A DNA stretch of 64,000 nt from IMG/VR virus record IMGVR_UViG_3300026116_000038; one strand, 5' to 3'. The notes under the pieces are model-generated. The model was not told where the DNA came from and searched no databases. It was given only the letters and a program-made list of their open reading frames with translations. Made by a program: the position numbers and the translations under genes. Source of the DNA: an uncultured virus (IMG/VR IMGVR_UViG_3300026116_000038). Taxonomy: Duplodnaviria > Heunggongvirae > Uroviricota > Caudoviricetes. This document shows, in pieces, positions 6,469 to 25,536 of the stretch; position 1 is the first letter of the stretch, and each line of letters begins with the position of its first letter.

Positions 6469-8688
6469 GTGTCTAAAACTTATAATAAAAAATCAACATA
6501 CAAACCTTATGTCGCTCCAGTAATTGAAAGAAAACCTAGATTCATTCCGCCTAATGGTTGGTTATCTGAATTTCAAAATTTATTTGATTTTGCAGTAATT
6601 AGTTCTGAACATGGATCAATTAATGCTGTAGCTGGTAGCGGTAAAACAACAGCTATTGTAGAATTAGCTTATAAATATTTAGAAGCATTTCCTTATCATA
6701 AAGTTCTGGCCGTTGCTTTTAATACTTCTATTAGGAAAGAATTACAAGCTAGAATGCCTGAAGGCGTTAATGTTCAAACTTGCCACAGTTTTGGTTATAA
6801 ATCTGTAATTAAAAATTGGGGCAAAGGAAGAGCTAACTTTGATCTCCAGGGCCCTAAAGGTTTTATTGTACAAAATCTTGCAGAGAACGAAATTGGTTAT
6901 GAAAAAGAAAAAGCAGATGACAGAGATTCACTTTGCCATGCTGTAAGTCTTTGTAAAACGCGATTAGCTTCTAATATTGATGAAGTTATTGAAGTTATAG
7001 CTGCATGGAATATTGATAGTAGTTATCCTAAAGAAATATTTGCTCAATATGTTTTAAACATTATGAACCATATGAAGAATCAACCAAGTTTGAGTGTTGA
7101 TAAGCGTATGGCCATTACTTTCGATGATCAGGTATGGTTGCCAATTGTAAATGATTGGGCTGCTCCAGAACAATATGATTTAGTTTTAGTTGATGAAGCT
7201 CAAGATTTATCACCAGCTAGAAAAGAAATAATTAGACGCTCTCTCAAAAAAGGTGGGAGAATGATTATTGTGGGTGATAAGTATCAGTGTGTTTCCGTTG
7301 AATCTATGATTGATACTCCAAATGGTAAAAAATTAGTTACCGATCTTAAAGTTGGAGATGAAGTTTTATCATATAGAAACGGATATATTGTACCACAAAT
7401 TATTAAACGTAAAGAATTATCTTATTGGGATCATGGAATTAAAGTTATAACTGAATCTAGTAAATCTATGACTATGAGTCCAAATCATAAATTGTGGATT
7501 GAAGATTTCAGTGACAATTTTGTTGACAATAATTCTAATATTAATATATATGCTCATAGTAAAAATAATAATACTGTAGTTGATTATAATTTAAATTATT
7601 ATGTAGCTATAACAAAATCTTTTAATAATTATCGTGATGCATTAAAATTTGCGCAAGAAATGCAAATTAAATTAAAAACAGAAATAATTCATAAATTAGT
7701 TATATCTGATAATAAATATGGTACAATGATAAAAGCTAGTGAACTTCATGTTGGTATGAAAGTTCCTGTTATGATTAATAATACATTGAAACTTGAATCA
7801 ATAACTTCTATTGATCGAGTGAATGGACAGTTTATTGATTTAGATGTTGATGATGCTTCAAATTTTTTCAGCGATGGTATTTTAACACATAATTCCATTT
7901 ATGCATTTGCTGGAGCTGATATTCATGCTTTACAAGATATCACCAAAGAGTTAAATGCAGTTGAATTACCACTTACTTGTTCTTTTAGATGTGCTAAAAA
8001 TATTGTAAAAGAAGCTCAACAATATAACCCGGCTATACAGCATAGAGTTGATGCTCCTGATGGAATTGTAGATATTGTAACTCCTGCTGAAATGATTAAA
8101 AAAGTTAAAGCTGGAGATGCTGTTGTAAGTAGAACTAATGCTGTTTTAGTTAAAGTATTTTTTCATCTTGCTAAAAATGGAACTAAGGTTAGATTGTTGG
8201 GGAAAGATTTTGCCGCTTCAATTGGACAAAGAGTTTTATCATGGCAGAAAAAAGCCAAAAAAGCAAAGCGGAAATTTACGGCCGAAGATTTAATTGAAAA
8301 AAATGCCGAATGGTTAGATGAGCAAATTAAATTCCTTAAAAAGAAAAAGATGTCTACTGATCGTGCTGAAGATGAGCATGATACAATAAATTCTTTATGT
8401 GAAGACCTTTCGGTTAAATTAAACACTGAAGAGGCTATTAAAGAAGTGTTAACTAGAATTAATACTATTTTTTCTGCTGATGAGGAGCCTGGTGGTCATG
8501 ACGGTAAATCTTGTGTTACTTTAAGTAGTACTCATAAATTTAAAGGGCTTGAAAGAGATCATATATATTTAATGTGGGATACGTTTAGACCTTTTTCATC
8601 TGAAGAAGAAACAAATATAGCTTACGTAGGAGTTACTAGAGCTAAAAATCATTTATCTTATGTTAAGGGAAAGCTTTTAAATTTATGA
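6469..8688 (+). CDS. UvrD/Rep-like superfamily 1 helicase containing an intein
   Basis: AVAGSGKT (Walker A), LVDEAQD, VGDKYQ|intein|SIYAFAGAD, SFRC, STHKFKGLE, YVGVTRAK. Confidence 0.92.
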   Translation: MSKTYNKKSTYKPYVAPVIERKPRFIPPNGWLSEFQNLFDFAVISSEHGSINAVAGSGKTTAIVELAYKYLEAFPYHKVLAVAFNTSIRKELQARMPEGVNVQTCHSFGYKSVIKNWGKGRANFDLQGPKGFIVQNLAENEIGYEKEKADDRDSLCHAVSLCKTRLASNIDEVIEVIAAWNIDSSYPKEIFAQYVLNIMNHMKNQPSLSVDKRMAITFDDQVWLPIVNDWAAPEQYDLVLVDEAQDLSPARKEIIRRSLKKGGRMIIVGDKYQCVSVESMIDTPNGKKLVTDLKVGDEVLSYRNGYIVPQIIKRKELSYWDHGIKVITESSKSMTMSPNHKLWIEDFSDNFVDNNSNINIYAHSKNNNTVVDYNLNYYVAITKSFNNYRDALKFAQEMQIKLKTEIIHKLVISDNKYGTMIKASELHVGMKVPVMINNTLKLESITSIDRVNGQFIDLDVDDASNFFSDGILTHNSIYAFAGADIHALQDITKELNAVELPLTCSFRCAKNIVKEAQQYNPAIQHRVDAPDGIVDIVTPAEMIKKVKAGDAVVSRTNAVLVKVFFHLAKNGTKVRLLGKDFAASIGQRVLSWQKKAKKAKRKFTAEDLIEKNAEWLDEQIKFLKKKKMSTDRAEDEHDTINSLCEDLSVKLNTEEAIKEVLTRINTIFSADEEPGGHDGKSCVTLSSTHKFKGLERDHIYLMWDTFRPFSSEEETNIAYVGVTRAKNHLSYVKGKLLNL
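7288..7893 (+). mobile_element. intein (202 aa, no recognisable homing endonuclease) in helicase motif III
   Basis: Starts CVSVESMIDTPNG; SPNHKLW block B; ends DLDVDDASNFFSDGILTHN followed by Ser. Confidence 0.9.
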
Positions 8689-13941: not shown

Positions 13942-14205
13942 ATGACTAAAGTTTTTTATGAAATAGATGAGTATGGAACTATTCGCTGGTATAAAAAAAA
14001 TACAGATATTCTTCATAGAGAAGAAGGACCTGCTGTAGAATGGAATGATGGAACTAAATGTTGGTACCAAAATGGTGAACTTCACAGAAAAGACGGTCCT
14101 GCAATAGAATGTATAGATGGATATAAAGAATATTATTTAAATGATATTTTTTATCTAGATATTAAAACTGATGAAGAATGGGTTATATTTCAAATTATAA
14201 ATTAA
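13942..14205 (+). CDS. HRxDGPA repeat protein, family A
   Basis: 2 repeats plus conserved tail. Confidence 0.85.
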   Translation: MTKVFYEIDEYGTIRWYKKNTDILHREEGPAVEWNDGTKCWYQNGELHRKDGPAIECIDGYKEYYLNDIFYLDIKTDEEWVIFQIIN

Positions 14206-14206
14206 T

Positions 14207-14470
14207 ATGACTAAAGTGTCTTCTGAAAAAGATGTATTTGGAAATATTCGTTGGTATAAAGAGGGTACGGATATTCTTCATAGAGAAAATGGTCCAGCTG
14301 TAGAATTTGCCAATGGAACTAAAGCTTGGTATCAAAATGGAAAATATCATAGAACTGATGGACCCGCTATAGAATATGTTGATGGAAATAAATATTATTA
14401 TTTAAATAATAAATATTGCCCAGATATTAAAACTGATGAAGATTGGTTAATATTTCAAATTATAAATTGA
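14207..14470 (+). CDS. HRxDGPA repeat protein, family A
   Basis: 2 repeats plus conserved tail. Confidence 0.85.
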   Translation: MTKVSSEKDVFGNIRWYKEGTDILHRENGPAVEFANGTKAWYQNGKYHRTDGPAIEYVDGNKYYYLNNKYCPDIKTDEDWLIFQIIN

Positions 14471-14471
14471 T

Positions 14472-14735
14472 ATGATTAAAGTGTTTTTTGAAACAGATGA
14501 ACGGGGTACTGTTTATTGGTTTATCGAAGGTACTAGATATCTTCATAGAGAAAATGGTCCAGCTATAGAATATGCTGATGGACATAAAGAGTGGTATCAA
14601 AATGGAAAACTTCATAGAGAAGATGGTCCTGCTGTAGAATGGATAGATGGATATAAAGAATATTGGTTAAATAATGAATATTATCCATATATTAAAACTG
14701 ACGAAGAGTGGATTATATTTCAAATTATAAATTAA
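14472..14735 (+). CDS. HRxDGPA repeat protein, family A
   Basis: 2 repeats plus conserved tail. Confidence 0.85.
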   Translation: MIKVFFETDERGTVYWFIEGTRYLHRENGPAIEYADGHKEWYQNGKLHREDGPAVEWIDGYKEYWLNNEYYPYIKTDEEWIIFQIIN

Positions 14736-14736
14736 T

Positions 14737-15000
14737 ATGACTAAAGTATATTCTAAAATAGATGCATATGGAACTATTTTTTGGTATAAAGAAGGAACAA
14801 ATATTCGTCACAGAGAAGATGGTCCAGCTGTAGAATATGCTGATGGGTCTAATTTTTGGTATCAAAATGGAAAATATCATAGATTAAATGGACCTGCTAA
14901 AGTTTATTATAATGGATATAAAGAATATTATTTAAATGGAAAACATTATCCGGATATTAAAACTGATAAAGAATGGTTAATATTTTTAATTATAAATTAA
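14737..15000 (+). CDS. HRxDGPA repeat protein, family A
   Basis: 2 repeats plus conserved tail. Confidence 0.85.
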   Translation: MTKVYSKIDAYGTIFWYKEGTNIRHREDGPAVEYADGSNFWYQNGKYHRLNGPAKVYYNGYKEYYLNGKHYPDIKTDKEWLIFLIIN

Positions 15001-15001
15001 A

Positions 15002-15274
15002 ATGACTGCAGTATATTCTGAAATAGATGAATATGGAACTATTCGTTGGTGTAAAAAAGGTACATATCTTCTTCACAGAGAAGATGGACCAGCTAAAGAA
15101 TATGTTAATGGAACTGAATATTGGTATCAATACGGAAAACTTCACAGAGAAGATGGTCCTGCTATAGTATATTATAATGGATATAAAAAATATAAAGAAT
15201 ATTATCTAAATGATATTTATTATCCAGATATTTCTTCTGATGAGGAGTGGATAATATTTCAAATATTAAATTAA
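15002..15274 (+). CDS. HRxDGPA repeat protein, family A
   Basis: 2 repeats plus conserved tail. Confidence 0.85.
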   Translation: MTAVYSEIDEYGTIRWCKKGTYLLHREDGPAKEYVNGTEYWYQYGKLHREDGPAIVYYNGYKKYKEYYLNDIYYPDISSDEEWIIFQILN

Positions 15275-15275
15275 T

Positions 15276-15539
15276 ATGACAAAAGTATATTCTAAAATAG
15301 ATGCATATGGAAATATTTTTTGGTATAAAGAAGGAACAAATATTCTTCATAGAGAAGATGGTCCAGCTGTAGAGTTGTATTATGGCGGTAAAATGTGGTA
15401 CCAAAATGGAAAACGTCATAGAGAAGATGGTCCGGCAAAAGAATGGAATAATGGAGATAAAGAATATTGGTTAAATGGAAGATTTTATCCAGATATTAAA
15501 ACTGATAAAGAATGGCTTATTTATTTAATTATTAATTAA
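15276..15539 (+). CDS. HRxDGPA repeat protein, family A
   Basis: 2 repeats plus conserved tail. Confidence 0.85.
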   Translation: MTKVYSKIDAYGNIFWYKEGTNILHREDGPAVELYYGGKMWYQNGKRHREDGPAKEWNNGDKEYWLNGRFYPDIKTDKEWLIYLIIN

Positions 15540-19057: not shown

Positions 19058-19130
19058 TCCAGCTTAGCTCAGTTGGTAGAGCAGGCGGCTGTTAACCGCC
19101 GGGTCCAAGGTTCGAGTCCTTGAGCTGGAG
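19058..19130 (+). tRNA. tRNA-Asn(GTT)
   Basis: TCCAGCT/AGCTGGA acceptor stem, GCTC/GAGC D-stem, GGCGG-CTGTTAA-CCGCC anticodon arm, TTCGAGT T-loop; followed by CTA, not CCA. Confidence 0.95.
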
Positions 19131-19155
19131 CTACTTTTTTAAATAGAAATAAAAA

Positions 19156-19568: not shown

Positions 19569-20123
19569 ATGATTGATAAATTAAATGTAATTAAATATAT
19601 TGAAAATAGATTGAAATTAATTCAACGAAAACATAATTTTAATCCTAATTCTGGTAAAAAACAAATAAAGAATCTACCAGAATTAGAAGATGATTTTCTT
19701 ATATTTCAAGAATATATTAAATTAATTAAAAAATGTAAATTGAATATTCATATTAAATATGATCCATTAGGTTTGGATAAAAAATCTATTAGTAAAATTA
19801 AAAATAGAAAAACTCAAGTTTATTTTGCTAGACATTCGAATGATCCAACTATATGGAAAATTGGATTATCTATTGCTCCAAATAAACGAGTAAAAAATAT
19901 TCAAGTTGGTAATCCTGAGCATTTCCAAACAATTTACACAATAGATGGAAATCTAAAATTAAAAAATGCTATTAAATACTATACATCTAAATATCACTTA
20001 GATGGCGGAACTGAATGGCGCAGATTAGATGAAAACGTTATAAAAACTATAATTCAAAAAATTAAAGAATCAGGGACGAATTTTTTATATAAGTCTAAAT
20101 TAGATTTAAATATTAATTCTTGA
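19569..20123 (+). CDS. GIY-YIG-superfamily (T5orf172/MUG113-like) protein
   Basis: VYFAR....WKIGLS..PNKRVKNIQVGNP ... GTEW. Confidence 0.7.
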   Translation: MIDKLNVIKYIENRLKLIQRKHNFNPNSGKKQIKNLPELEDDFLIFQEYIKLIKKCKLNIHIKYDPLGLDKKSISKIKNRKTQVYFARHSNDPTIWKIGLSIAPNKRVKNIQVGNPEHFQTIYTIDGNLKLKNAIKYYTSKYHLDGGTEWRRLDENVIKTIIQKIKESGTNFLYKSKLDLNINS

Positions 20124-20173: not shown

Positions 20174-22270
20174 ATGGAACCAGTTAAAAAATCCAACGCT
20201 CGTAAAACTTCAACCTCTGAAACGAAAGTGTATTCTTATGGAGCTTTTCTTCCTAAAGAATCAGAGCAAATTAAATTAATTAATGATCAATTATATTTTG
20301 CGCATAAATACCGAAACAAACTTGTAGAAATTGAACGAAAGCGTCGAAATCGCTTCCGTAACCTTCGTAAATTAATGTCACCAGAATTACGTCAGCTGGA
20401 AAACGATCTACTTCTCACTGAAGAGAAAATTATTGAATTACGTAAAAGTTTTGGCGGCCGTGCGGAAAATAGTTTAGATCCTAAATTTCCTAAAAAAAAT
20501 CGTCAGTTAACTCCGCAAGCTGTAGAAATTAAGGATTTAAAATTAAAGAAAAAAGATTTAAGTGCTAAGATTAAATCTATTCATACTCAATTAAATTTAG
20601 ATTATTTCAAAGAAGCTGATAGTAAATTTTCTCTTCTAAAGAAAGAACGCTTAGAACAAAAAGCTAAAGAATTAAATAAGGATTCTCTTGGTCCAAATGA
20701 TGTTAATCGTCACAATGTAGTGAATAATCTCTACAAAGAAATGATTGATGGTGGAAATAGGTTTTGGGCTATCAAAGCGAAAATTTCTAAATCAGCTGAA
20801 GCATCAAATAAACGAGCAAGAAGTAATTGCAAATGCTCAAGTGGAACTTATGTTAGTATTGAAGAGGCTGCAAAACAATCCTTTTCAAATTCTAAATTTG
20901 AGCCAAAATTTAAATCATTTGATGGTTCAGGAAAAATTGGCATGCAGCTTACTCAAAATAAAGGTCTGTCAATTAAAGATGCCCTAAGTGGGTCAAGTCC
21001 TGTTCTTAAGATTGATTTACATCCAGAAGTTTATTTACGGCAAAATAAAAAGAAAAATAAAGTTTTAGCTACAGCGCGCATTAAACTTTTTGGCACTGAA
21101 AAAACTGGAAAGTTTGTAGATATTCCTTTTATTATGCATCGCCAAATGCCAGAAGATGCTACAATTAAATGGGTATTTTTAGTTGTATCTAAAATTGGAT
21201 ATCGTAGTATTTATAATATTCAATTTACGATTGAGTCTAATTCATTTACTCAGCCTTCAGCTATTCGTCCAGATGATGTTGCTATTAATTTAGGATGGAA
21301 AGTAAATGATCAAACAGATGATATTACCGTTGCTACTAGCTTTGATGGTAAAAATTATAATGAATTAATTTTGCCTTCTAAGATGCGTGCAAATATAGTT
21401 TATAAAGAAACATTGATTAGTCATGCTGATAAACATTTTGATTCTGTTAAGAAAGATGTATCAAAATGGTTAAAGAATTCAAATTTAGATGAATGTATTA
21501 CGAAATATTTCACAAATTTGCCACAGTGGAGATCGCATAAAAAACTTCTATTCGTCTCTAAAGAATTAGCTAAAGTATTTTTACCAGATAATACTTGGTA
21601 TGATCTTTGGAAAAAATGGAAAACTCATTGTAAAGAAAATAAACCTTGGAAAAATTGTAGTGATAAAGATGATTTATTTACAACATTAGATAATACTATT
21701 CAGTGGTGTAAAGATAATTCGATTGATGATCCCAATGTTCAGATGGCTTTTTATTTAAAGACTTGGGCAGAAAAAGAAATTCATTTAATTAATTGGGCCC
21801 GTGGTATTGAATCAAAACTTCGAAAACATCGAAAAGAAATTTACCGTTGTTTTGCAAAGAAGTTATCTAGCACCTATGGAAAGGTTATCGTTGAAAACTG
21901 GGATAAATCTAAAACTGCCGAAACTCCTGATGTTGAAAATGATAATCGTACAAAGCAAGAAGAAAATGCTAATGCGGTGCGTCAATTTGTTGGAGTAAGT
22001 GTTTTAACTGACGCACTAAAGCAGAAATTTGGAAAAGATTTTTGTGAAGAAAACGCAAAAAATATTTCTAAAGAACATTTTAAATGTGGCGGAGAATTAA
22101 TTAATCAAAAAGAATTATCAGACGTACATTGTAAAAAATGTAATAAATCTGTAAACGTTAATTACAATGCGGCAGCTCACTTGTTTGATCGACATGGCGA
22201 GCGGTCTGGTGCTGTGAAATTACCCGGAACCGCTCGCAAAACACGTAAGTCACCAGAATTATTAGCTTAA
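20174..22270 (+). CDS. cas12m: type V CRISPR effector, Cas12m-like (V-M / V-U1 / C2c4), predicted DNase-inactive RuvC
   Basis: Motifs collinear with Cas12m as recalled: QLYFAHKYRNKLVEIE, FDGSGKIGMQL, DIPFIMHRQMP, VAINLGWK (RuvC-I, N372), QWRS, HRKEIYR, VIVENWD (E574), HxxC...CxxC Zn finger, NVNYNAA (RuvC-III, N663); CRISPR array immediately downstream. Confidence 0.85.
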   Translation: MEPVKKSNARKTSTSETKVYSYGAFLPKESEQIKLINDQLYFAHKYRNKLVEIERKRRNRFRNLRKLMSPELRQLENDLLLTEEKIIELRKSFGGRAENSLDPKFPKKNRQLTPQAVEIKDLKLKKKDLSAKIKSIHTQLNLDYFKEADSKFSLLKKERLEQKAKELNKDSLGPNDVNRHNVVNNLYKEMIDGGNRFWAIKAKISKSAEASNKRARSNCKCSSGTYVSIEEAAKQSFSNSKFEPKFKSFDGSGKIGMQLTQNKGLSIKDALSGSSPVLKIDLHPEVYLRQNKKKNKVLATARIKLFGTEKTGKFVDIPFIMHRQMPEDATIKWVFLVVSKIGYRSIYNIQFTIESNSFTQPSAIRPDDVAINLGWKVNDQTDDITVATSFDGKNYNELILPSKMRANIVYKETLISHADKHFDSVKKDVSKWLKNSNLDECITKYFTNLPQWRSHKKLLFVSKELAKVFLPDNTWYDLWKKWKTHCKENKPWKNCSDKDDLFTTLDNTIQWCKDNSIDDPNVQMAFYLKTWAEKEIHLINWARGIESKLRKHRKEIYRCFAKKLSSTYGKVIVENWDKSKTAETPDVENDNRTKQEENANAVRQFVGVSVLTDALKQKFGKDFCEENAKNISKEHFKCGGELINQKELSDVHCKKCNKSVNVNYNAAAHLFDRHGERSGAVKLPGTARKTRKSPELLA

Positions 22271-22276
22271 ATTTGG

Positions 22277-22305
22277 TTGACGTTTGCCTGAATCGTGACT
22301 ATAAT
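22277..22305 (+). promoter_or_regulatory. CRISPR leader promoter
   Basis: TTGACG-N17-TATAAT, 80 bp upstream of repeat 1; sets the array orientation as +. Confidence 0.8.
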
Positions 22306-22385
22306 CATTGCGTGATGGGGTGTAAACGTAACCTCTCGCAATGTGCTTCGTAGATCTTTGAAAATATAAGTAATTTTGATCGCCC

Positions 22386-23721
22386 GTTGGCAATAGAAGC
22401 TAACCTCTATAAGCGTTAGACCTGTAATAGATGTTGGCAGCCATTTTTGCACCCACTGTTGGCAATAGAAGCTAACCTCTATAAGCGTTAGACCGATTCT
22501 GCCATTACTTTCCAGCGGGATCTAAGTCGGTTGGCAATAGAAGCTAACCTCTATAAGCGTTAGACCGCATCCAAGTAGGCGCCAAGTTTATCCCCCTTGG
22601 TGTTGGCAATAGAAGCTAACCTCTATAAGAGTTAGACGACACTTTGAATCGAAATGCTCACGTTAGGTATGACTGCGTCAATAGAAGCTAACTTCTATAA
22701 AAGTTAGACTATGACGAACAGTGCAAAGGCGAAAACACACTAGGCAGTAATTTAATTACATCATCAATAGTAGCTAATCTCTATAAGAATTAGACAGATT
22801 GTGACAGAAATTTTAACAAAATAACAAACGTCAGCAATAGAAGCTAACCTTTATAAGAGTTAGGCTTGCGGCCAGTCACCAACGCAGTCTCCGGTTCTTA
22901 CGTTATCAACAATAGAAACTAACCTCTATAAGAGTTAGGCGGGCCTGGCGTCACTGAGGGCGGTCAGTAATAGAAACTAACCTCTATAAGAGTTTAGACG
23001 TGAGGATTAAATGATGGTGTCGAGTGCCACTCTCGACTGGCATCAATAGAAACTAACATCTATAAGAGTTAAATGCGTAAAGCTGCTGACCGATCAAAAA
23101 AATAGTGCGAAGTCAGCAATAGAAGCTAACCTCTCTAAGAGTTAGACGAAATGGTGATGGCAGACATCCTCCACCACATAGCGGCATCAATAGAAACTAA
23201 CCTCTATAAGAGTTAGACGGCCCTCCAACCGCAAATCGCGCGAAGCGGTCGATGTCAATAATAGAAGCTAACCTCTATGAGAGTTAGATTAGTCGTCCGA
23301 ATATCTTATTCTTTCTCACCGGCCCGTCAGTAATAGAAGCTAACCTCTATGAGAGTTAGGCAAATAATAGTCCACGTACTAGACATCATCGTCACCATAT
23401 TAGCAATAGAAACTAACCTCTATAAGAGTTAGGCCCGAGACTAAATGGTGGGATCGAGTGCCACTTTCAACAGCATCAATAGAAGCTAACCTCTATAAGA
23501 GTTAGACACGTTTCTCGTCGACATGATTAAATTTGGCTTCAACAAACAATATCAGCTAACTAATATAAGAATTAACGACAGTAAGAAGTTCAATCGCACT
23601 GAAACAAGATATTAAGTAATAGTTGCTAACTACTATAAATGTTAGACTACAACGGCGGTATCATGATGATATTTGAAAGATCAAGCAAATAATAGCAGCT
23701 AATCGCTAAAAAGAATTAGAC
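22386..23721 (+). CRISPR. CRISPR array, 19 repeats (36-bp consensus GTTGGCAATAGAAGCTAACCTCTATAAG(C/A)GTTAGAC) and 18 spacers (22-50 bp, mostly 34-39)
   Basis: Repeat starts approx. 22386, 22458, 22530, 22602, 22674, 22760, 22830, 22905, 22963, 23039, 23112, 23183, 23254, 23326, 23399, 23472, 23542, 23612, 23685. First three identical; later copies degenerate but keep the CTAAC/GTTAG hairpin. Confidence 0.95.
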
Positions 23722-23875
23722 CAGTTTCTGCACTATGCTGTTTATTAAATAATAAGCCGCTTGACAATGTAATTAAATACAGTACGAAGATTACGGATTG
23801 TAAATATCAGGTAACCGTAATAATATTTAAAGCAGATATTGTAATAATAACTTAATTATACCTTAAAATTAAAGT

Positions 23876-24580
23876 TTACTTGGATTTTAAATGTTTGCGA
23901 ATAGCATTATCACTTACACCTAATTTTCGTCCAACTGCTGAGTAATTAGATTCTGAAAGCATTTTCAATAATTCTTCATTTGAAGGCCATTGAATTTTAG
24001 TTTGACGGAAAAATTTGATTCTATCACGTAAATTTTCTCTATCTAAAAAATTAGATAATGCAGTAGAAGATACTTCTAACCATAAAGCTGTTTTATTTAA
24101 ATTAGTATTATTTATACTTTCAATAATTTTATTAATTTCTTCTTCAGTTTTATTGATTAATTCTTTACATATGTGACTTTTTAATTCAATATTAATAATA
24201 TGTTCATCGAAATTACTCATGTCTAAATGTGGATTATGATGATGAGTATGACATAGATGACATAATAATTGGCATTTTTCCACCTCAAGTGTTAATTCTT
24301 TTAAAGATCTATTTCCTAGGGACCTTCCATCAACATTAAATTTTTTTTTACTAGGGTCTATATGATGAAAAACTAATCCAGCCATGTTTTGTTTATACCC
24401 GCAAATTTCACAACATCCTCCCTTTTTATTTATAAAGTATAGTTTTCTATTGATTCCGCGGTCTTTTTGTATAGAATAATTATTATTTTTTGAATTAAAA
24501 TATTTTGTTTTACAAGTTTGTGAACAAAATTTTGATTGACAATTTTCAATTTCAGTATTACATATTACACATAAGTTCAT
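23876..24580 (-). CDS. HNH homing endonuclease-like protein with Zn ribbon and C-terminal HTH
   Basis: CEICGY...LVFHHIDP...KCQLLCHLCHTHHH; YSAVGRKLGVSDNAIRK; next to a tRNA gene. Confidence 0.85.
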   Translation of the reverse strand: MNLCVICNTEIENCQSKFCSQTCKTKYFNSKNNNYSIQKDRGINRKLYFINKKGGCCEICGYKQNMAGLVFHHIDPSKKKFNVDGRSLGNRSLKELTLEVEKCQLLCHLCHTHHHNPHLDMSNFDEHIINIELKSHICKELINKTEEEINKIIESINNTNLNKTALWLEVSSTALSNFLDRENLRDRIKFFRQTKIQWPSNEELLKMLSESNYSAVGRKLGVSDNAIRKHLKSK

Positions 24581-24649
24581 ACCATTCCTCTCGATGTTAT
24601 GAACTTATTCAGATTTATTAATAGATTTTATAAAGAATTTTAAAAACGC

Positions 24650-24678
24650 TTGACAATATAAGTTAATGAACTTAGACT
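24650..24678 (+). promoter_or_regulatory. sigma70 promoter for the tRNA-Ile2/tilS unit
   Basis: TTGACA-N17-TAGACT. Confidence 0.7.
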
Positions 24679-24698
24679 AAAGATAGTACAAACATTAC

Positions 24699-24776
24699 GG
24701 GCCGTTAGCTCAATAGGTCTAGAGCAAAAAACTCATAATTTTGAGGCTGTAGGTTCAAGTCCTACACGGCCCACCA
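24699..24776 (+). tRNA. tRNA with CAT anticodon, most likely tRNA-Ile2 (lysidine-modified)
   Basis: GGGCCGT/ACGGCCC acceptor with C4-G69 and C5-G68, A73, encoded CCA; loop CTCATAA; adjacent to tilS. Confidence 0.9.
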
Positions 24777-24802
24777 TTTTTAATAAAATGAAATTGGAGC
24801 AA

Positions 24803-24838
24803 AATATTAATATCAGCTAACCGATATAAGAGTTAGAT
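24803..24838 (+). repeat. orphan copy of the CRISPR repeat
   Basis: AATATTAATATCAGCTAACCGATATAAGAGTTAGAT; shares AATATCAGCTAAC with array repeat 17 and TATAAGAGTTAGA with most repeats. Confidence 0.8.
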
Positions 24839-24843
24839 AAAAA

Positions 24844-25536
24844 ATGAAACTCGAACGAAATATTCACAAAGCATTAACTGAATCAATTAATCGAAACTAT
24901 AAAACTCCTACTAAATTTACTTTAGGAGTATCTGGTGGTTCTGATTCACAATGTTTGCTTGTATCTTTTCCTCGAGTAGCAAGAGAATTGGGTCATGATT
25001 GTATTGCAGTAGGAATCAATCATGGTCTAAGAAATGAAGCTAATTCAGAACTTGATTTAGCAGAAAATCTTGCTTTAAAAATCAATGTTCCTTTTTATCG
25101 CAAGGTGGTAAAAGTGATTGATGGTCCGGAAGGAATACAATCACATGCAAGGAAAGCAAGATATGATGCATTGTTTGAATATGGCAATGTAATAGTAACT
25201 GCACATCATTTTGACGATTATGCAGAGACTGTTATGATCAGACTTTTGCGTGGTAAAAATATTGGCTCATTAAATGTTTTGCCAGAAGTGTCTAATAATG
25301 GTATTGGAATTTTCAGGCCATTACTCTCTGTACCTAAAAACAGAATTTTAGCACATTTAAAGCGGTGGAATATTTTATATGCAAATGATCCGTCAAATGA
25401 GAATATGGATTATTTAAGAGTTAAAGTTAGAAAAGAAATTCTACCTTTATTAGAAAGTATTAATCCTCAAATTAAAAATAGACTGGTAGAAATTTCACAA
25501 GAATTACAAATTGGAAATCAATTAAATAATTTATAA
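24844..25536 (+). CDS. tilS: tRNA(Ile)-lysidine synthetase (catalytic domain only)
   Basis: GVSGGSDS PP-loop, NHGLR, ARKARY, TAHHFDDYAET, RPLL, DPSN..R..VR. Confidence 0.92.
   Translation: MKLERNIHKALTESINRNYKTPTKFTLGVSGGSDSQCLLVSFPRVARELGHDCIAVGINHGLRNEANSELDLAENLALKINVPFYRKVVKVIDGPEGIQSHARKARYDALFEYGNVIVTAHHFDDYAETVMIRLLRGKNIGSLNVLPEVSNNGIGIFRPLLSVPKNRILAHLKRWNILYANDPSNENMDYLRVKVRKEILPLLESINPQIKNRLVEISQELQIGNQLNNL

Follow-up and report, generated by a model that had tools for sequence, protein, structure and literature searches.

Diverged repeats with retained stem pairing in a phage-borne type V-M CRISPR array

The absence of adaptation genes from the locus is typical of type V-M CRISPR systems, without defining them, and a T- or C-rich 5' PAM is a further feature of the type. 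Compact CRISPR arrays without adaptation genes are also known from huge phages, where they accompany CasPhi (Cas12j) and others. Soil huge phages have been reported to carry such compact systems, whose arrays average 6.8 spacers (PMC11748809), and V-M has been named among the systems that interfere without cutting (PMC10120712). According to the structural account of the Cas12m2 crRNA, bases -36 to -30 of its 36-nt repeat are disordered, positions -22..-17 form a pseudoknot with -8..-3, G(-23) is paired to A(-2) while A(-24) is flipped out, and the optimal heteroduplex is 17 bp (PMC10442227); GoCas12m retains about 30 nt of its repeat (PMC11013384). Published RuvC triads of Cas12m clades include DED, NED, DND, HDD and HEK/HQK (PMC10442227) as well as N-D-D (PMC11013384).

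The array and its setting

The window, as we use the term, is the whole 64,000-nt stretch of DNA analysed, which belongs to an uncultured virus (IMG/VR record IMGVR_UViG_3300026116_000038). The array lies on its + strand at 22386-23721, in a huge-phage contig, with a Cas12m-like gene and a near-consensus promoter directly upstream; effector, promoter and repeats are all on the same strand. In the lines below, r1-r19 are the repeats and S1-S18 the spacers.

20174..22270, + strand, cas12m-like effector gene (P0001, 698 aa), from phmmer against PDB
22271..22385, + strand, leader, from the effector stop to r1
22277..22305, + strand, sigma-70-like promoter in the leader (11/12 consensus bases, 17-nt spacer), pointing into the array
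22386..22673, + strand, tier 1: r1-r4 with S1-S4, all 36 nt; a distinct 5' hexamer common to r1-r4; 10/10 stem pairs in each repeat; nhmmer 39.5-40.7 bits
22674..23541, + strand, tier 2: r5-r16 with S5-S16; variable 5' hexamers, spacers of 22-50 nt, cores with 0-4 substitutions; stems 10/10 paired save r6, r10 and r11 (9/10 each), with a 1-nt insertion in the 3' arm of stem 2 in r9; nhmmer 30.3-40.2 bits
23542..23721, + strand, tier 3: r17 (23542), r18 (23612) and r19 (23685) with S17 and S18; cores with 5-9 substitutions, several compensatory; 7/10, 10/10 and 9/10 pairs, respectively; nhmmer 19.2-24.8 bits
23876..24580, - strand, 234-aa zinc-ribbon/HNH-looking ORF, between the array and a solitary repeat

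The best PDB match of P0001 is the Cas12m 23vw (phmmer, E 3.2e-31, over stretches 14-184, 240-471 and 525-671); Cas12m2 8hhl/8hio (E 1.9e-8) and 8pm4 (E 9.7e-6) are also matched, and no family besides Cas12m was found in PDB at E <= 1. The third aligned stretch spans the putative RuvC/zinc-ribbon (TNB) region, with CxxC pairs at residues 638 and 653 onward. This putative TnpB-like C-terminal region reached only E 0.021 and 15.4 bits against Pfam PF07282, below the cut-off of 26.3, and P0001 matched the NCBIfam IS607 TnpB model at E 0.0089. Aligned to the D/E/D of 23vw, its RuvC positions are N372, E574 and N663, and N372 is invariant in 7/7 close relatives; close homologues at E <= 1e-30 number about 340. 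With Asn at two of the three catalytic positions, the guides most likely serve to bind and block DNA rather than to cut it.

The promoter at 22277-22305 is the best of 14 promoter-like sites within 22150-24900. Among the sequencing runs listed as containing this DNA, none was of RNA. No anti-repeat of the tracrRNA kind was found in the 64-kb window, where the best minus-strand profile match outside the array has E 0.24, and the layout there is that of a repeat followed by its guide, without tracrRNA; an Rfam scan returned tRNA only. Cas1 (PF01867) gave no match in the 131,451-bp record (31% completeness, about a third of the full ~390-kb genome), in a search whose positive control was found in 9 of 14 known genomes, and no cas1, cas2 or cas4 domain appeared in 45 scanned ORFs, a set that mostly left out ORFs under 110 aa. 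The 234-aa ORF had weak Pfam matches only (E 0.014), and its putative HNH character is a reading of the sequence by eye.

The array comprises 19 repeats of 36 nt, on which a repeat search and our own extraction agree. They start at 22386, 22458, 22530, 22602, 22674, 22760, 22830, 22905, 22963 and 23039 (r1-r10) and at 23112, 23183, 23254, 23326, 23399, 23472, 23542, 23612 and 23685 (r11-r19); S1-S18 measure 36, 36, 36, 36, 50, 34, 39, 22, 39, 37, 35, 35, 36, 37, 37, 34, 34 and 37 nt. A 21-nt core pattern allowing up to three mismatches gave 17 matches against 0.01 expected by chance, and the repeat profile recovered exactly 20 copies at E <= 1e-4, the next-best match having E 0.24. The initial annotation was right that r1-r3 are identical, that r4 differs from them (at repeat position 29 only), that the first four spacers are of one length, and that r5-r19 vary in their first 6 bases and have spacers of irregular length; r5-r19 in fact all differ, mainly in these bases. 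There, 37 of 96 cells are off consensus, against 47 of 480 in the 30-nt core, although the variation is not quite as free as the initial annotation put it, position 4 being off in only 1 of 16 copies. Beyond the two phases that it described, r17-r19 constitute a third, much more diverged tier.

Stem pairing in the diverged repeats

The conserved 30-nt core (repeat positions 7-36) holds two interleaved stems, stem 1 of positions 8-12 with 21-25 and stem 2 of positions 15-19 with 30-34. The initial annotation had recognised a single stem and had overlooked stem 1, which carries more covariation than the one it noted. Counted from the 3' end, stem 2 is -22..-18 with -7..-3; an A stands at -24 in all but one of the 20 copies, and the consensus reads G/A at -23/-2. 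The two predicted stems match the pseudoknot scaffold reported in the solved structures of Cas12m crRNAs. As the first 6-7 repeat bases are disordered or trimmed in those crRNAs, the free 5' end and the variable spacing may be understood as a slack linker.

Substitutions in the array do not ignore RNA pairing, as would be the mark of a neutrally decaying remnant. The 16 non-pristine copies keep 153 of 160 stem pairs (with 1-nt insertions placed), against 136.1 +/- 3.2 when the same 47 core substitutions (47/480 cells) are placed at random and 142.9 +/- 2.1 when the 23 stem substitutions are randomized within the stems, 153 being reached in 0/20,000 trials in both cases. A covariation check of the repeats had been proposed in the initial annotation, and its expectation that changes would be non-random relative to pairing is supported by these counts. 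Fourteen of the 23 stem substitutions lie at doubly changed, still paired positions, and the density of substitutions falls from 0.385 in the tail to 0.150 at unpaired core positions and 0.072 in the stems.

Among the 20 copies (18 distinct), 93.3% of cells are paired against 87.6 +/- 1.0 after shuffling (0/500 as high), and within the array both partners have changed in 7 cells, against 1.3 +/- 1.0 (0/500), in permutations that treat the copies as independent, whereas r6/r19 and r17/solitary repeat have changes in common. Counted conservatively, the independent compensatory double changes number four to five, at least four. The two measures that are robust to relatedness are marginal within the array, the covarying pairs (3/10) being reached in 22/500 shuffles and the pair types in 45/500. 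Partners slid by 1-3 columns are 21-39% paired. Because MAFFT aligns the 1-nt insertions of r9 and r19 wrongly, as it does the window row among the family arrays, the shuffle counts for both the array and the family slightly understate pairing. Free-energy folding of seven cores with ViennaRNA, which cannot model pseudoknots, gave weak values and no support either way (-0 to -5.9 kcal/mol, z -2.6 to +0.4).

Pair 12-21 occurs in three Watson-Crick states in this one array, A-U, U-A (flipped in r18) and C-G (r19); in r19, pair 19-30 has also become U-A. The paired change C19>T with G30>A, reported in the initial annotation for r6 and r19, is real in both, and the one reported for r5 is not a clean compensation, its positions 20 and 28 lying outside the family stems; for r5, ViennaRNA favours a lengthened stem 1. 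The copies that have diverged furthest (r18, r19 and the solitary repeat) keep 29/30 pairs via double changes. Seven pairs are broken in total, one each in r6, r10, r11 and r19 and three in r17, so some units may be dead. The pairs kept above the random expectation, together with the compensatory changes, support selection on the scaffold; the earlier claim that the old units are under selection therefore stands for the scaffold of most of them, and not for all.

Equally heterogeneous arrays with kept stems make up 12 of 25 related Cas12m arrays, so such heterogeneity is a trait of the family and not peculiar to this phage. Eight heterogeneous related arrays have 657/672 stem cells paired, with double changes in three of them (L062, L032 and L024). 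When 20 related arrays were aligned with this one, all 8 tested pairs covaried (0/500 shuffles reach the score), 86.2% of cells were paired against 56.6 +/- 2.9, and 23 further pair types were found against 16.3 +/- 2.0 (0/500). Stem 1 has five A/U-rich pairs here, compared with three G/C pairs in most relatives.

Origin of the variation and turnover of the units

We consider it likely that the locus is a phage-borne type V-M (Cas12m-like) crRNA array in which the scaffold is kept by selection, the linker drifts and units turn over slowly. The array would be transcribed rightwards from the promoter at 22277-22305 and processed into units, each consisting of a 30-nt pseudoknot scaffold and a guide made of the first ~17-20 nt of the spacer; all 18 spacers have at least 22 nt, more than the 17 bp given as the optimal heteroduplex of Cas12m2. 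The remaining spacer and the first 6 nt of the next repeat would form the linker, which, not being held by protein, would be trimmed or disordered and could drift freely in sequence and length. Lacking its own adaptation genes, the locus would renew its units slowly, and old units would gather point changes, small indels, duplications and inter-repeat exchanges, with Cas12m binding selecting against stem-breaking changes unless a second change restores the pair. Once loaded, the guides would most likely act on DNA without cleavage. The four pristine units at the leader end would be the youngest. A host integrase supplied in trans may have inserted their spacers, each time copying the repeat next to the leader, or the units may stem from recombination with a different array.

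A second lineage, from run X2, bears on the source of the variation. It has in common with the window the leader, the start of r1, S4-r5, S4, S5, S11 and S13-S18, on short contigs (depth 4.4-6.1) that rebuild the array only partly and leave S1-S3 and 22808-23110 (S7-S10) uncovered, a gap that is no sign of absence except where a contig joins 22734 to 23259. The spacer retention that the initial annotation suggested comparing is thus seen in this relative for S4, S5, S11 and S13-S18, together with block differences. One X2 contig joins 22734 to 23259, that is, S5 to an S13-like unit; two S13-like units are present, with 6 and 2 differences from S13 of the window; S5 stops about 13 nt earlier on its 3' (linker) side; and X2 also has spacers absent here, so that the individual retention of old guides was not borne out. 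Divergence is also uneven along the array. r5 differs at 6/36 positions, against 1/61 in S4 plus the first 25 nt of S5 (errors being possible at a contig depth of 4.57), and S16-r17 has 12 substitutions and 3 indels in about 60 nt, beside units with none, S17-r18-S18-r19 showing no listed difference. In X2, r17 has T19 and G34 and its stem 2 is fully paired, compared with two mismatches in the window. Such patchy divergence points to exchange between repeats or arrays rather than to slow point mutation.

Shuffling, by unit duplication, deletion between repeats and gene conversion, including with arrays of related phages, might accordingly be the main source of the heterogeneity in place of slow decay under selection, and many 'compensatory' pairs would then have been inherited as blocks from working repeats. 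We regard this as a serious possibility, while leaning somewhat against it; it complements the main explanation and alters only where the variation comes from. Besides the X2 junction, the two S13-like units, the spacers absent from the window and the concentrated r5 changes, it would account for the likeness of S9 and S15 (82% over 33 nt), for A14, G35 and certain 5' hexamers that recur in non-adjacent repeats, for the chimera-like r4, whose 5' end is that of r1-r3 and whose position 29 keeps the old base, and for an internal 105-nt duplicate of 95% identity in the related array L049. However, each of the three states of pair 12-21 needs a double change somewhere, shuffling alone leaves the fivefold lower substitution density of stems relative to tail unexplained, and the X2 contigs are short and of low depth.

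Possible, and rather unlikely in our judgement, is that the r1-r4 block was imported by recombination from another array of the same family, in which case two histories would meet within r4, and no activity at the leader end would be required. That r4 combines the new 5' hexamer with the old base at position 29 fits such an import, although one mutation of the leader-side repeat followed by two or three acquisitions gives the same pattern of r1-r3 versus r4, and the exact 36-nt spacers and identical repeats look integrase-made. The failure to find Cas1 in the 131-kb record or cas1/2/4 domains in the 45 ORFs also fits, with the reservation that the Cas1 search covered only about a third of the genome; in addition, the repeat is absent from all bacterial species genomes searched, so that none of them points to a compatible integrase in a host. 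In X2 the leader is strongly altered over its final 30 nt: the segment 22354-22382, where divergence of the flank peaks, has 8 substitutions and one inserted base, against 1 difference in 22000-22353, differences that may singly be errors at a contig depth of 4.4. X2 nevertheless has the same leader, r1 start and S4-r5, and the junction therefore predates the split of the two lineages. An imported block fits the data as well as acquisition does, and the earlier claim that the leader end still acquires spacers was not upheld.

It is very improbable that the array behind r4 is dead and decays neutrally, its conservation reflecting recent common descent of the copies. Indeed r17 and r10 look damaged, with three broken pairs in the former and the usual 3' end gone in the latter, the G+C content of the far-end spacers S16-S18 (0.35-0.38) is nearing that of the window (0.287), and no targets were found; yet the sparing of stems relative to the tail, the excess of kept pairs over the random expectation, the double changes of r18, r19 and the solitary repeat, and the like behaviour of eight other heterogeneous arrays are at odds with neutral decay. 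An assembly artefact, through collapse or chimerism of strain variants in a metagenomic source whose repeats assemble poorly, can practically be dismissed, since over 6,101 bases the window agrees with the IMG/VR and JGI records at every position, all 8 listed pieces from run X1 (possibly the source sample) tile the array without difference, hardly any 31-mer recurs, given the variable 5' hexamers and unique spacers, and X2, an independent study, also contains diverged repeats, r17-r19 among them.

The solitary repeat, targets and known systems

The twentieth copy of the repeat lies outside the array, among the following features:

24650-24678, promoter-like site upstream of the tRNA
24699..24776, + strand, tRNA with anticodon CAT (Rfam tRNA, 68.7 bits)
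24783..24838, + strand, 56-nt stretch with the solitary repeat (24803-24838; 28.5 bits, E 8.4e-8)
24844..25536, + strand, TilS-like gene (tRNA lysidine synthetase N-terminal domain; PF01171 E 1.3e-40, TIGR02432 E 2.4e-41)

On one side of it is the tRNA(CAU) gene and on the other, at 24844, the start codon of the tilS-like gene, whose first bases would form its 'guide'. All 10 stem pairs are intact, 11-22 and 12-21 in stem 1 being changed on both sides; the initial annotation counted this copy as '+1' and missed the two compensated pairs. The 26 nt before it resemble the tilS-like start (24/30 aligned columns), and no second site was found. The profile search revealed no further scaffold copies ahead of other genes beyond the 20, and a fold-geometry scan gave 14 matches, 13 of them in the array or the solitary repeat, against 1.2 in shuffles. 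A core like that of r18, seen in X1 with different flanks, is absent from the 131-kb record. A contig of X2 skips exactly 24783-24838; in this un-inserted tilS allele, the sequence that comes after the solitary repeat in the window is preceded by T,T,A, the only indirect hint at a PAM.

One may speculate, with low expectation, that the phage keeps inherited, long-lived Cas12m silencing guides, each unit selected, and plants the scaffold before its own genes. The solitary repeat would then turn the 5' end of the tRNA-tilS transcript into a crRNA whose guide matches the un-inserted sibling allele at every base, with T,T,A at the place of the PAM, and the phage's own allele would be shielded because the repeat replaces the PAM. 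If true, this would amount to allele-specific RNA-guided exclusion or repression between sibling phages, like a homing element guarding its own site.

Searches for targets were negative. Against the array-masked window, the best spacer matches were 12-14 nt; the whole array gave nothing below E 1 against 72,556 plasmids, and its sole match among 50,697 phage records aligned 22 nt of S9 with a paaD gene (E 1) and was rejected as a target because it does not extend. The first 24 nt of S1 and the repeat were each found in IMG/VR only in the phage's own contig, and the repeat had 0 matches in species genomes, as did a degenerate S9/S15 pattern in 185,579 of them. No protospacer from which to read a 5' PAM emerged from the window, phage, plasmid, IMG/VR or species-genome searches, and with no target for any spacer the 'regulatory' role first ascribed to the old guides was not borne out.

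The array amounts to a mutational scan, made by nature, of the scaffold in Cas12m guides, and can inform the design of guides for these compact DNA binders: the first 6 nt and positions 14, 20, 26, 28, 35 and 36 tolerate change, and the stems must stay paired. Many V-M arrays besides this one are mosaics of diverged, fold-preserving repeats with irregular spacers, which standard CRISPR finders, expecting uniform repeats, will truncate or miss, and which imply slow turnover where an own integrase is absent. Should the targets of the old guides be fixed, the phage Cas12m, as a protein that does not cut, would constitute a set of RNA-guided repressors, a step from immunity to regulation.

Compared with ordinary arrays, in which terminal repeats are degenerate, the leader-distal copies r17-r19 are likewise the most diverged; here, however, 15/19 copies are affected, paired positions are spared and compensated pairs are present. 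With crRNA-like regulatory elements (CreR/CreA, scaRNA, and the SRUs of V-A loci and viruses) the locus shares a solitary diverged repeat by a gene start and the idea of long-lived guides that repress by partial or full pairing without cleavage. Such elements are defined in PMC10120712 by conservation in close loci, whereas the solitary repeat, a stand-alone unit outside the array, is skipped in X2; moreover, no partially matching promoter target was found here, and the main array has 18 different spacers and is no mini-array. The compact arrays of huge phages (Cas12j/CasPhi and others) similarly combine a single-effector type V locus with a nearby array and no cas1/cas2 nearby, but the effector here is of the Cas12m family and the array is long (18 spacers) and heterogeneous.

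The closest likeness is to type V-M Cas12m (MmCas12m2 and GoCas12m; formerly V-U1), in effector homology, in the 36-nt repeat whose last 30 nt carry stem and pseudoknot in the register of the solved crRNA, in an array downstream of the effector without anti-repeat and, in the scanned record, without adaptation genes, and in a non-canonical RuvC triad. The phage triad is N-E-N, with the third Asp also replaced, a combination not among the triads quoted above from PMC10442227 and PMC11013384. The effector is about 100 residues longer than the ~600-aa characterised Cas12m proteins, at ~21-29% identity, its carrier is an AT-rich huge phage, and 15/19 repeats are non-identical. These differences leave the classification unchanged: the locus is of type V-M.

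Array anatomy and phage surroundings

Repeat search and extraction delineated 19 direct repeats (r1-r19, in order) at 22386-23721 on the plus strand, and the array is a real one of a known kind, type V-M. The layout originally described was confirmed by extraction: r1, r2 and r3 are identical, r4 deviates solely at position 29, spacers S1-S4 (each numbered after the repeat it follows) are 36 nt each, and S5-S18 range from 22 to 50 nt (50, 34, 39, 22, 39, 37, 35, 35, 36, 37, 37, 34, 34 and 37 nt), with start-to-start steps of 72, 72, 72, 72, 86, 70, 75, 58, 76, 73, 71, 71, 72, 73, 73, 70, 70 and 73. A profile built from the repeats retrieved exactly 20 copies from the 64-kb window at E <= 1e-4, the 19 of the array and a solitary copy at 24803-24838, and the 21st-ranking match reached only E 0.24. 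In place of the proposed two phases, the profile scores give three tiers: r1-r4 (39.5-40.7 bits), r5-r16 (30.3-40.2 bits) and r17-r19 (19.2-24.8 bits). The features discussed here are as follows.

6469-8688: UvrD-type helicase ORF, with a weak Hint-domain match in the ATPase region (E 3.1e-4; 21.6 bits, below the 28.4 cut-off)
19569-20123: ORF with a T5orf172/MUG113 domain (E 1.9e-5), on one side of the CRISPR locus
20174-22270, plus strand: Cas12m-like effector ORF, 698 aa, with the array directly downstream
22277-22305: promoter-like site (11/12 consensus bases), directed into the array
23876-24580, minus strand (opposite to the array): zinc-ribbon/HNH-looking ORF, on the other side of the locus
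24699-24776: tRNA gene, anticodon CAT, directly upstream of the TilS-like gene
24803-24838, plus strand: solitary repeat with full scaffold, 27 nt past the tRNA(CAU) gene and 5 nt before the TilS-like start codon
24844-25536: TilS-like protein of 230 aa that has only the N-terminal lysidine synthetase domain

Among solved structures, Cas12m proteins are the sole relatives of the 698-aa ORF (23vw, E 3.2e-31; 8hhl and 8hio, E 1.9e-8; 8pm4, E 9.7e-6). The RuvC D/E/D of 23vw aligns with N372, E574 and N663, and N372 is invariant across the seven closest relatives aligned. In a representative library the effector has 2,510 homologues at E <= 0.001, of which 344 reach E <= 1e-30; it belongs to a populous branch and is no oddity. 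The surroundings look like those of a huge phage: G+C content is 28.7%, nearly all ORFs share one strand, and the window carries two tRNA genes and Pfam matches to a TilS-like protein, a Thg1-like protein, a DNA ligase and a UvrD helicase. The window matches a 131,451-bp IMG/VR contig at 100%, and the effector protein is also on record on a 390,274-bp contig. Cas1 was not found in the 131-kb record, which is rated 31% complete, and no cas1/2/4 domain occurred in the 45 ORFs scanned (4 + 41, drawn from the 64 ORFs that reach 110 aa and one shorter ORF). The tRNA genes flank the CRISPR locus on both sides (19058-19131 and 24699-24776), and together with the bracketing ORFs the locus may constitute a mobile island. 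Elsewhere in the window, the Hint-domain match suggests that the UvrD-type helicase ORF may contain an intein, and at 13942-15539 six ORFs of 87-90 aa follow one another head to tail at nearly constant steps of 264-273 nt and look like tandem paralogues; the one of them scanned gave no Pfam match.

Pairing within the array and across related arrays

The conserved core of the repeat comprises 30 nt (positions 7-36 from the 5' end), within which two stems interleave. In stem 1, positions 8-12 pair with 21-25 (ATAGA with TCTAT); in stem 2, the only one recorded in the initial annotation, 15-19 pair with 30-34 (CTAAC with GTTAG). Measured against the old-copy consensus, substitution density is 37/96 (0.385) in the first six bases, 24/160 (0.150) in the unpaired core and 23/320 (0.072) in the stems, which bears out the reported variability of the 5' hexamer in old repeats. 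In the 16 non-pristine copies, 153 of 160 pairs are kept once the 1-nt insertions of r9 and r19 are placed by hand; r6, r10, r11 and r19 have one broken pair each and r17 has three. Fourteen of the 23 stem substitutions lie in doubly changed, still-paired positions, one leads to G-U and eight break a pair. The substitutions thus fall nonrandomly with respect to pairing, as had been proposed: random placement of the 47 core substitutions kept 136.1 +/- 3.2 pairs, placement of the 23 stem substitutions inside the stems kept 142.9 +/- 2.1, and 0/20,000 runs reached 153 in either case, under the assumption of independent copies. Shared changes link r6 with r19 and r17 with the solitary copy, so that a conservative count gives four to five independent double changes.

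Aligned with MAFFT, the 20 copies, 18 of them distinct, had 93.3% of cells paired (shuffled, 87.6 +/- 1.0; 0/500 reach this) and seven cells changed on both sides (shuffled, 1.3 +/- 1.0; 0/500). Three of ten pairs covary, namely 11-22 (G-C, U-A, G-U), 12-21 (A-U, C-G, U-A) and 19-30 (C-G, U-A); the last is the reported CTAAC/GTTAG to CTAAT/ATTAG replacement in r6 and r19, which was recovered. The measures robust to relatedness are weaker, three covarying pairs being found in 22/500 shuffles and five further pair types in 45/500. The other reported example, CTAACTT/AAGTTAG in r5, does not qualify as a clean compensation: positions 20 and 28, where r5 is changed, belong to neither family stem, and at minimum energy r5 folds into an extended version of stem 1. 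Free-energy folding, by a method without pseudoknots, gave no support (0 to -5.9 kcal/mol; z -2.6 to +0.4).

The pairing was also followed across loci next to Cas12m-like genes (L-numbers), by aligning representative repeats of 20 related arrays with the window array. From 62 loci, we left out duplicates of the window contig, loci with fewer than three repeats, near-duplicate arrays (L008, L033, L041, L047, L048 and L060), loci with an unclear 36-nt frame (L013, L036, L044 and L059) and coding repeats (L016 and L054). All eight tested pairs covary, a count that 15/500 shuffles reach (6.1 +/- 0.9). None of 500 shuffles reached the covariation score, the 86.2% of cells paired (shuffled, 56.6 +/- 2.9), the 47 cells changed on both sides (14.9 +/- 3.1) or the 23 further pair types (16.3 +/- 2.0), and slid partners left 31-44% paired.

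A set of 25 related arrays adjoining Cas12m-like genes was parsed by one script, after removal of window-contig duplicates, arrays of fewer than four repeats and three loci that nearly duplicated others. Nine were uniform (all or all but one repeats identical; spacers of 33-41 nt), four were intermediate, and 12 were heterogeneous, fewer than half of their repeats equalling the consensus, with shortest spacers of 8-13 nt and longest of 90-107 nt. Repeats equal to the consensus number 0/20 in L002, 9/60 in L025, 1/15 in L047 and 4/16 in L062. In eight heterogeneous arrays, with stems picked by script on each consensus, 657/672 stem cells are paired; L062 (8 cells), L032 (3) and L024 (1) show double changes, and in 6/8 arrays substitutions are sparser in the stems than in the unpaired core. 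Heterogeneity is therefore a trait common to about half of the related arrays examined and not peculiar to the window phage, whose array is distinctive only in its high 5' hexamer variability (0.31, from a parse that caught 17/19 repeats; only L006 is higher, at 0.48). Internal unit duplications, spacers down to 10-13 nt and numerous repeat variants were seen in L049, L047, L062, L002 and L025, including a 105-nt duplicate of 95% identity in L049 (7097-7201 and 7412-7516), and the L062 array seems to combine two repeat families. None of the papers listed in one literature search described degenerate, compensated Cas12m/V-U1 arrays.

Taken as a whole, the claim that selection acts on the crRNA fold of the array is supported, and in sharper form: the fold takes the shape of a pseudoknot, and what varies freely is linker. 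The heteroduplex of Cas12m2 is 17 bp in PMC10442227. If the Cas12m protein held no more than the 30-nt scaffold plus the initial 17-20 nt of spacer, the leftover spacer bases and the first six bases of the next repeat would form a single unconstrained linker, and the hexamer and spacer length would vary together because both belong to it. The shortest of the 18 spacers is 22 nt, and therefore every unit still offers a full guide.

A second lineage and the origin of the spacers

Two sequencing runs contain the stretch, all records being contigs: X1 (0.93 of sampled words), which shows zero differences in eight listed pieces and may be the source sample, and X2 (0.22), from a separate study. X2 is a close relative, and compared with the window its array is a mosaic. 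The 354 nt before 22354 (22000-22353) carry just one difference and 23576-24782 carries four, whereas the leader end adjoining r1 (22354-22382, ~30 nt) has eight substitutions and one insertion (contig depth 4.4). The leader, the r1 start, S4 (one difference) and the S5 start are common to both, as are S11 and r12 (one difference, plus three bases inserted at the r11/S11 border), r15-S15-r16 (one difference) and S17-r18-S18-r19 (no listed difference). In one X2 contig an S13-like unit comes directly after S5, and 524 nt of the window are passed over; there are two S13-like units (6 and 2 differences) and at least two spacers without counterpart in the window. The X2 cover excludes S1-S3 and 22808-23110, from which no absence is inferred. 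As to the suggested longevity of old spacers, old units are indeed common to both lineages, but they are not frozen. S16-r17 shows 12 substitutions and three indels within about 60 nt, and r5 differs at 6/36 positions against 1/61 flanking spacer bases (contig depth 4.57, errors possible). With T at position 19 and G at 34, X2 r17 has a fully paired stem 2, in the compensated form of r6 and r19; the window copy has two mismatches there. Divergence this uneven suggests that, besides point change, repeats or arrays have exchanged sequence. The first 25 nt of X2 S5 agree with the window, after which it is ~13 nt shorter before the next core, which lends direct support to the linker reading. In an X1 contig, an r18-like core (corresponding to window 23614-23646) lies within quite different AT-rich flanks; this form is absent from the 131-kb record and may represent a further solitary copy, either at some other place in the genome or on a different phage.

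The spacers average 0.47 G+C and the window 0.287, which marks the spacers as foreign to the phage; the host, rivals or plasmids may be their source. No spacer targets were found in the window, phage records or plasmid records, nor in IMG/VR for S1 or in species genomes for one S9/S15 pattern, and the window repeat occurs in no bacterial genome of the species collection. A 22-nt exact match of S9 to a paaD gene in a GenBank record labelled Acinetobacter phage MD-2021a (E 1) did not extend and was rejected. S9 (23000-23038) and S15 (23435-23471) resemble each other at 82% over 33 nt, shifted by one base relative to the repeats, and when both are read in one frame several of the differences, at few sites, are synonymous or conservative; this likeness would fit two acquisitions from homologous genes as well as duplication. 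As to the proposed continuing acquisition at the leader side, the r1-r3 versus r4 pattern fits one repeat mutation followed by acquisitions, r4 also looks like a recombination joint, and no integrase was found in the 131-kb record or the ORFs scanned. That the old guides are regulatory is a reasonable guess from this non-cutting family, as portrayed in PMC11013384 and PMC10442227.

The solitary repeat and the published Cas12m scaffold

The solitary repeat keeps 10/10 pairs, with pairs 11-22 and 12-21 changed on both sides, and its nearest array copy is r17. The adjoining tRNA and TilS-like genes look like a phage-borne tRNA-Ile2 plus its modifying enzyme. The 26 nt preceding the solitary core resemble the tilS-like start beyond it (24/30 aligned columns identical), and an X2 contig skips exactly 24783-24838, a 56-nt stretch containing the repeat. 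RNA downstream of the solitary scaffold is the tilS-like 5' end; these bases are preceded by the repeat's end in the window and by T,T,A in the un-inserted X2 allele. The T,T,A fits the 5'-TTN PAM given for GoCas12m in PMC11013384. The solitary repeat might thereby supply a guide directed at sibling phages that carry the un-inserted allele, an idea we rate low because T-T-N is common in such AT-rich DNA.

The two-stem core of the array repeats corresponds to the published Cas12m scaffold. In GoCas12m, ~30 nt of the repeat form a triplex-pseudoknot core within a crRNA of ~50 nt, according to PMC11013384. For Cas12m2, PMC10442227 describes a 36-nt repeat with bases -36 to -30 disordered (negative numbers counting from the repeat 3' end), a pseudoknot of -22..-17 with -8..-3, a flipped-out A(-24) and a G(-23) that meets A(-2). 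Here position -24 is A in 19/20 copies, consensus -23/-2 is G/A, and stem 2 pairs -22..-18 with -7..-3; the 36-nt repeat length is common to both, and the register of stem 2 agrees with the pseudoknot described for Cas12m2.
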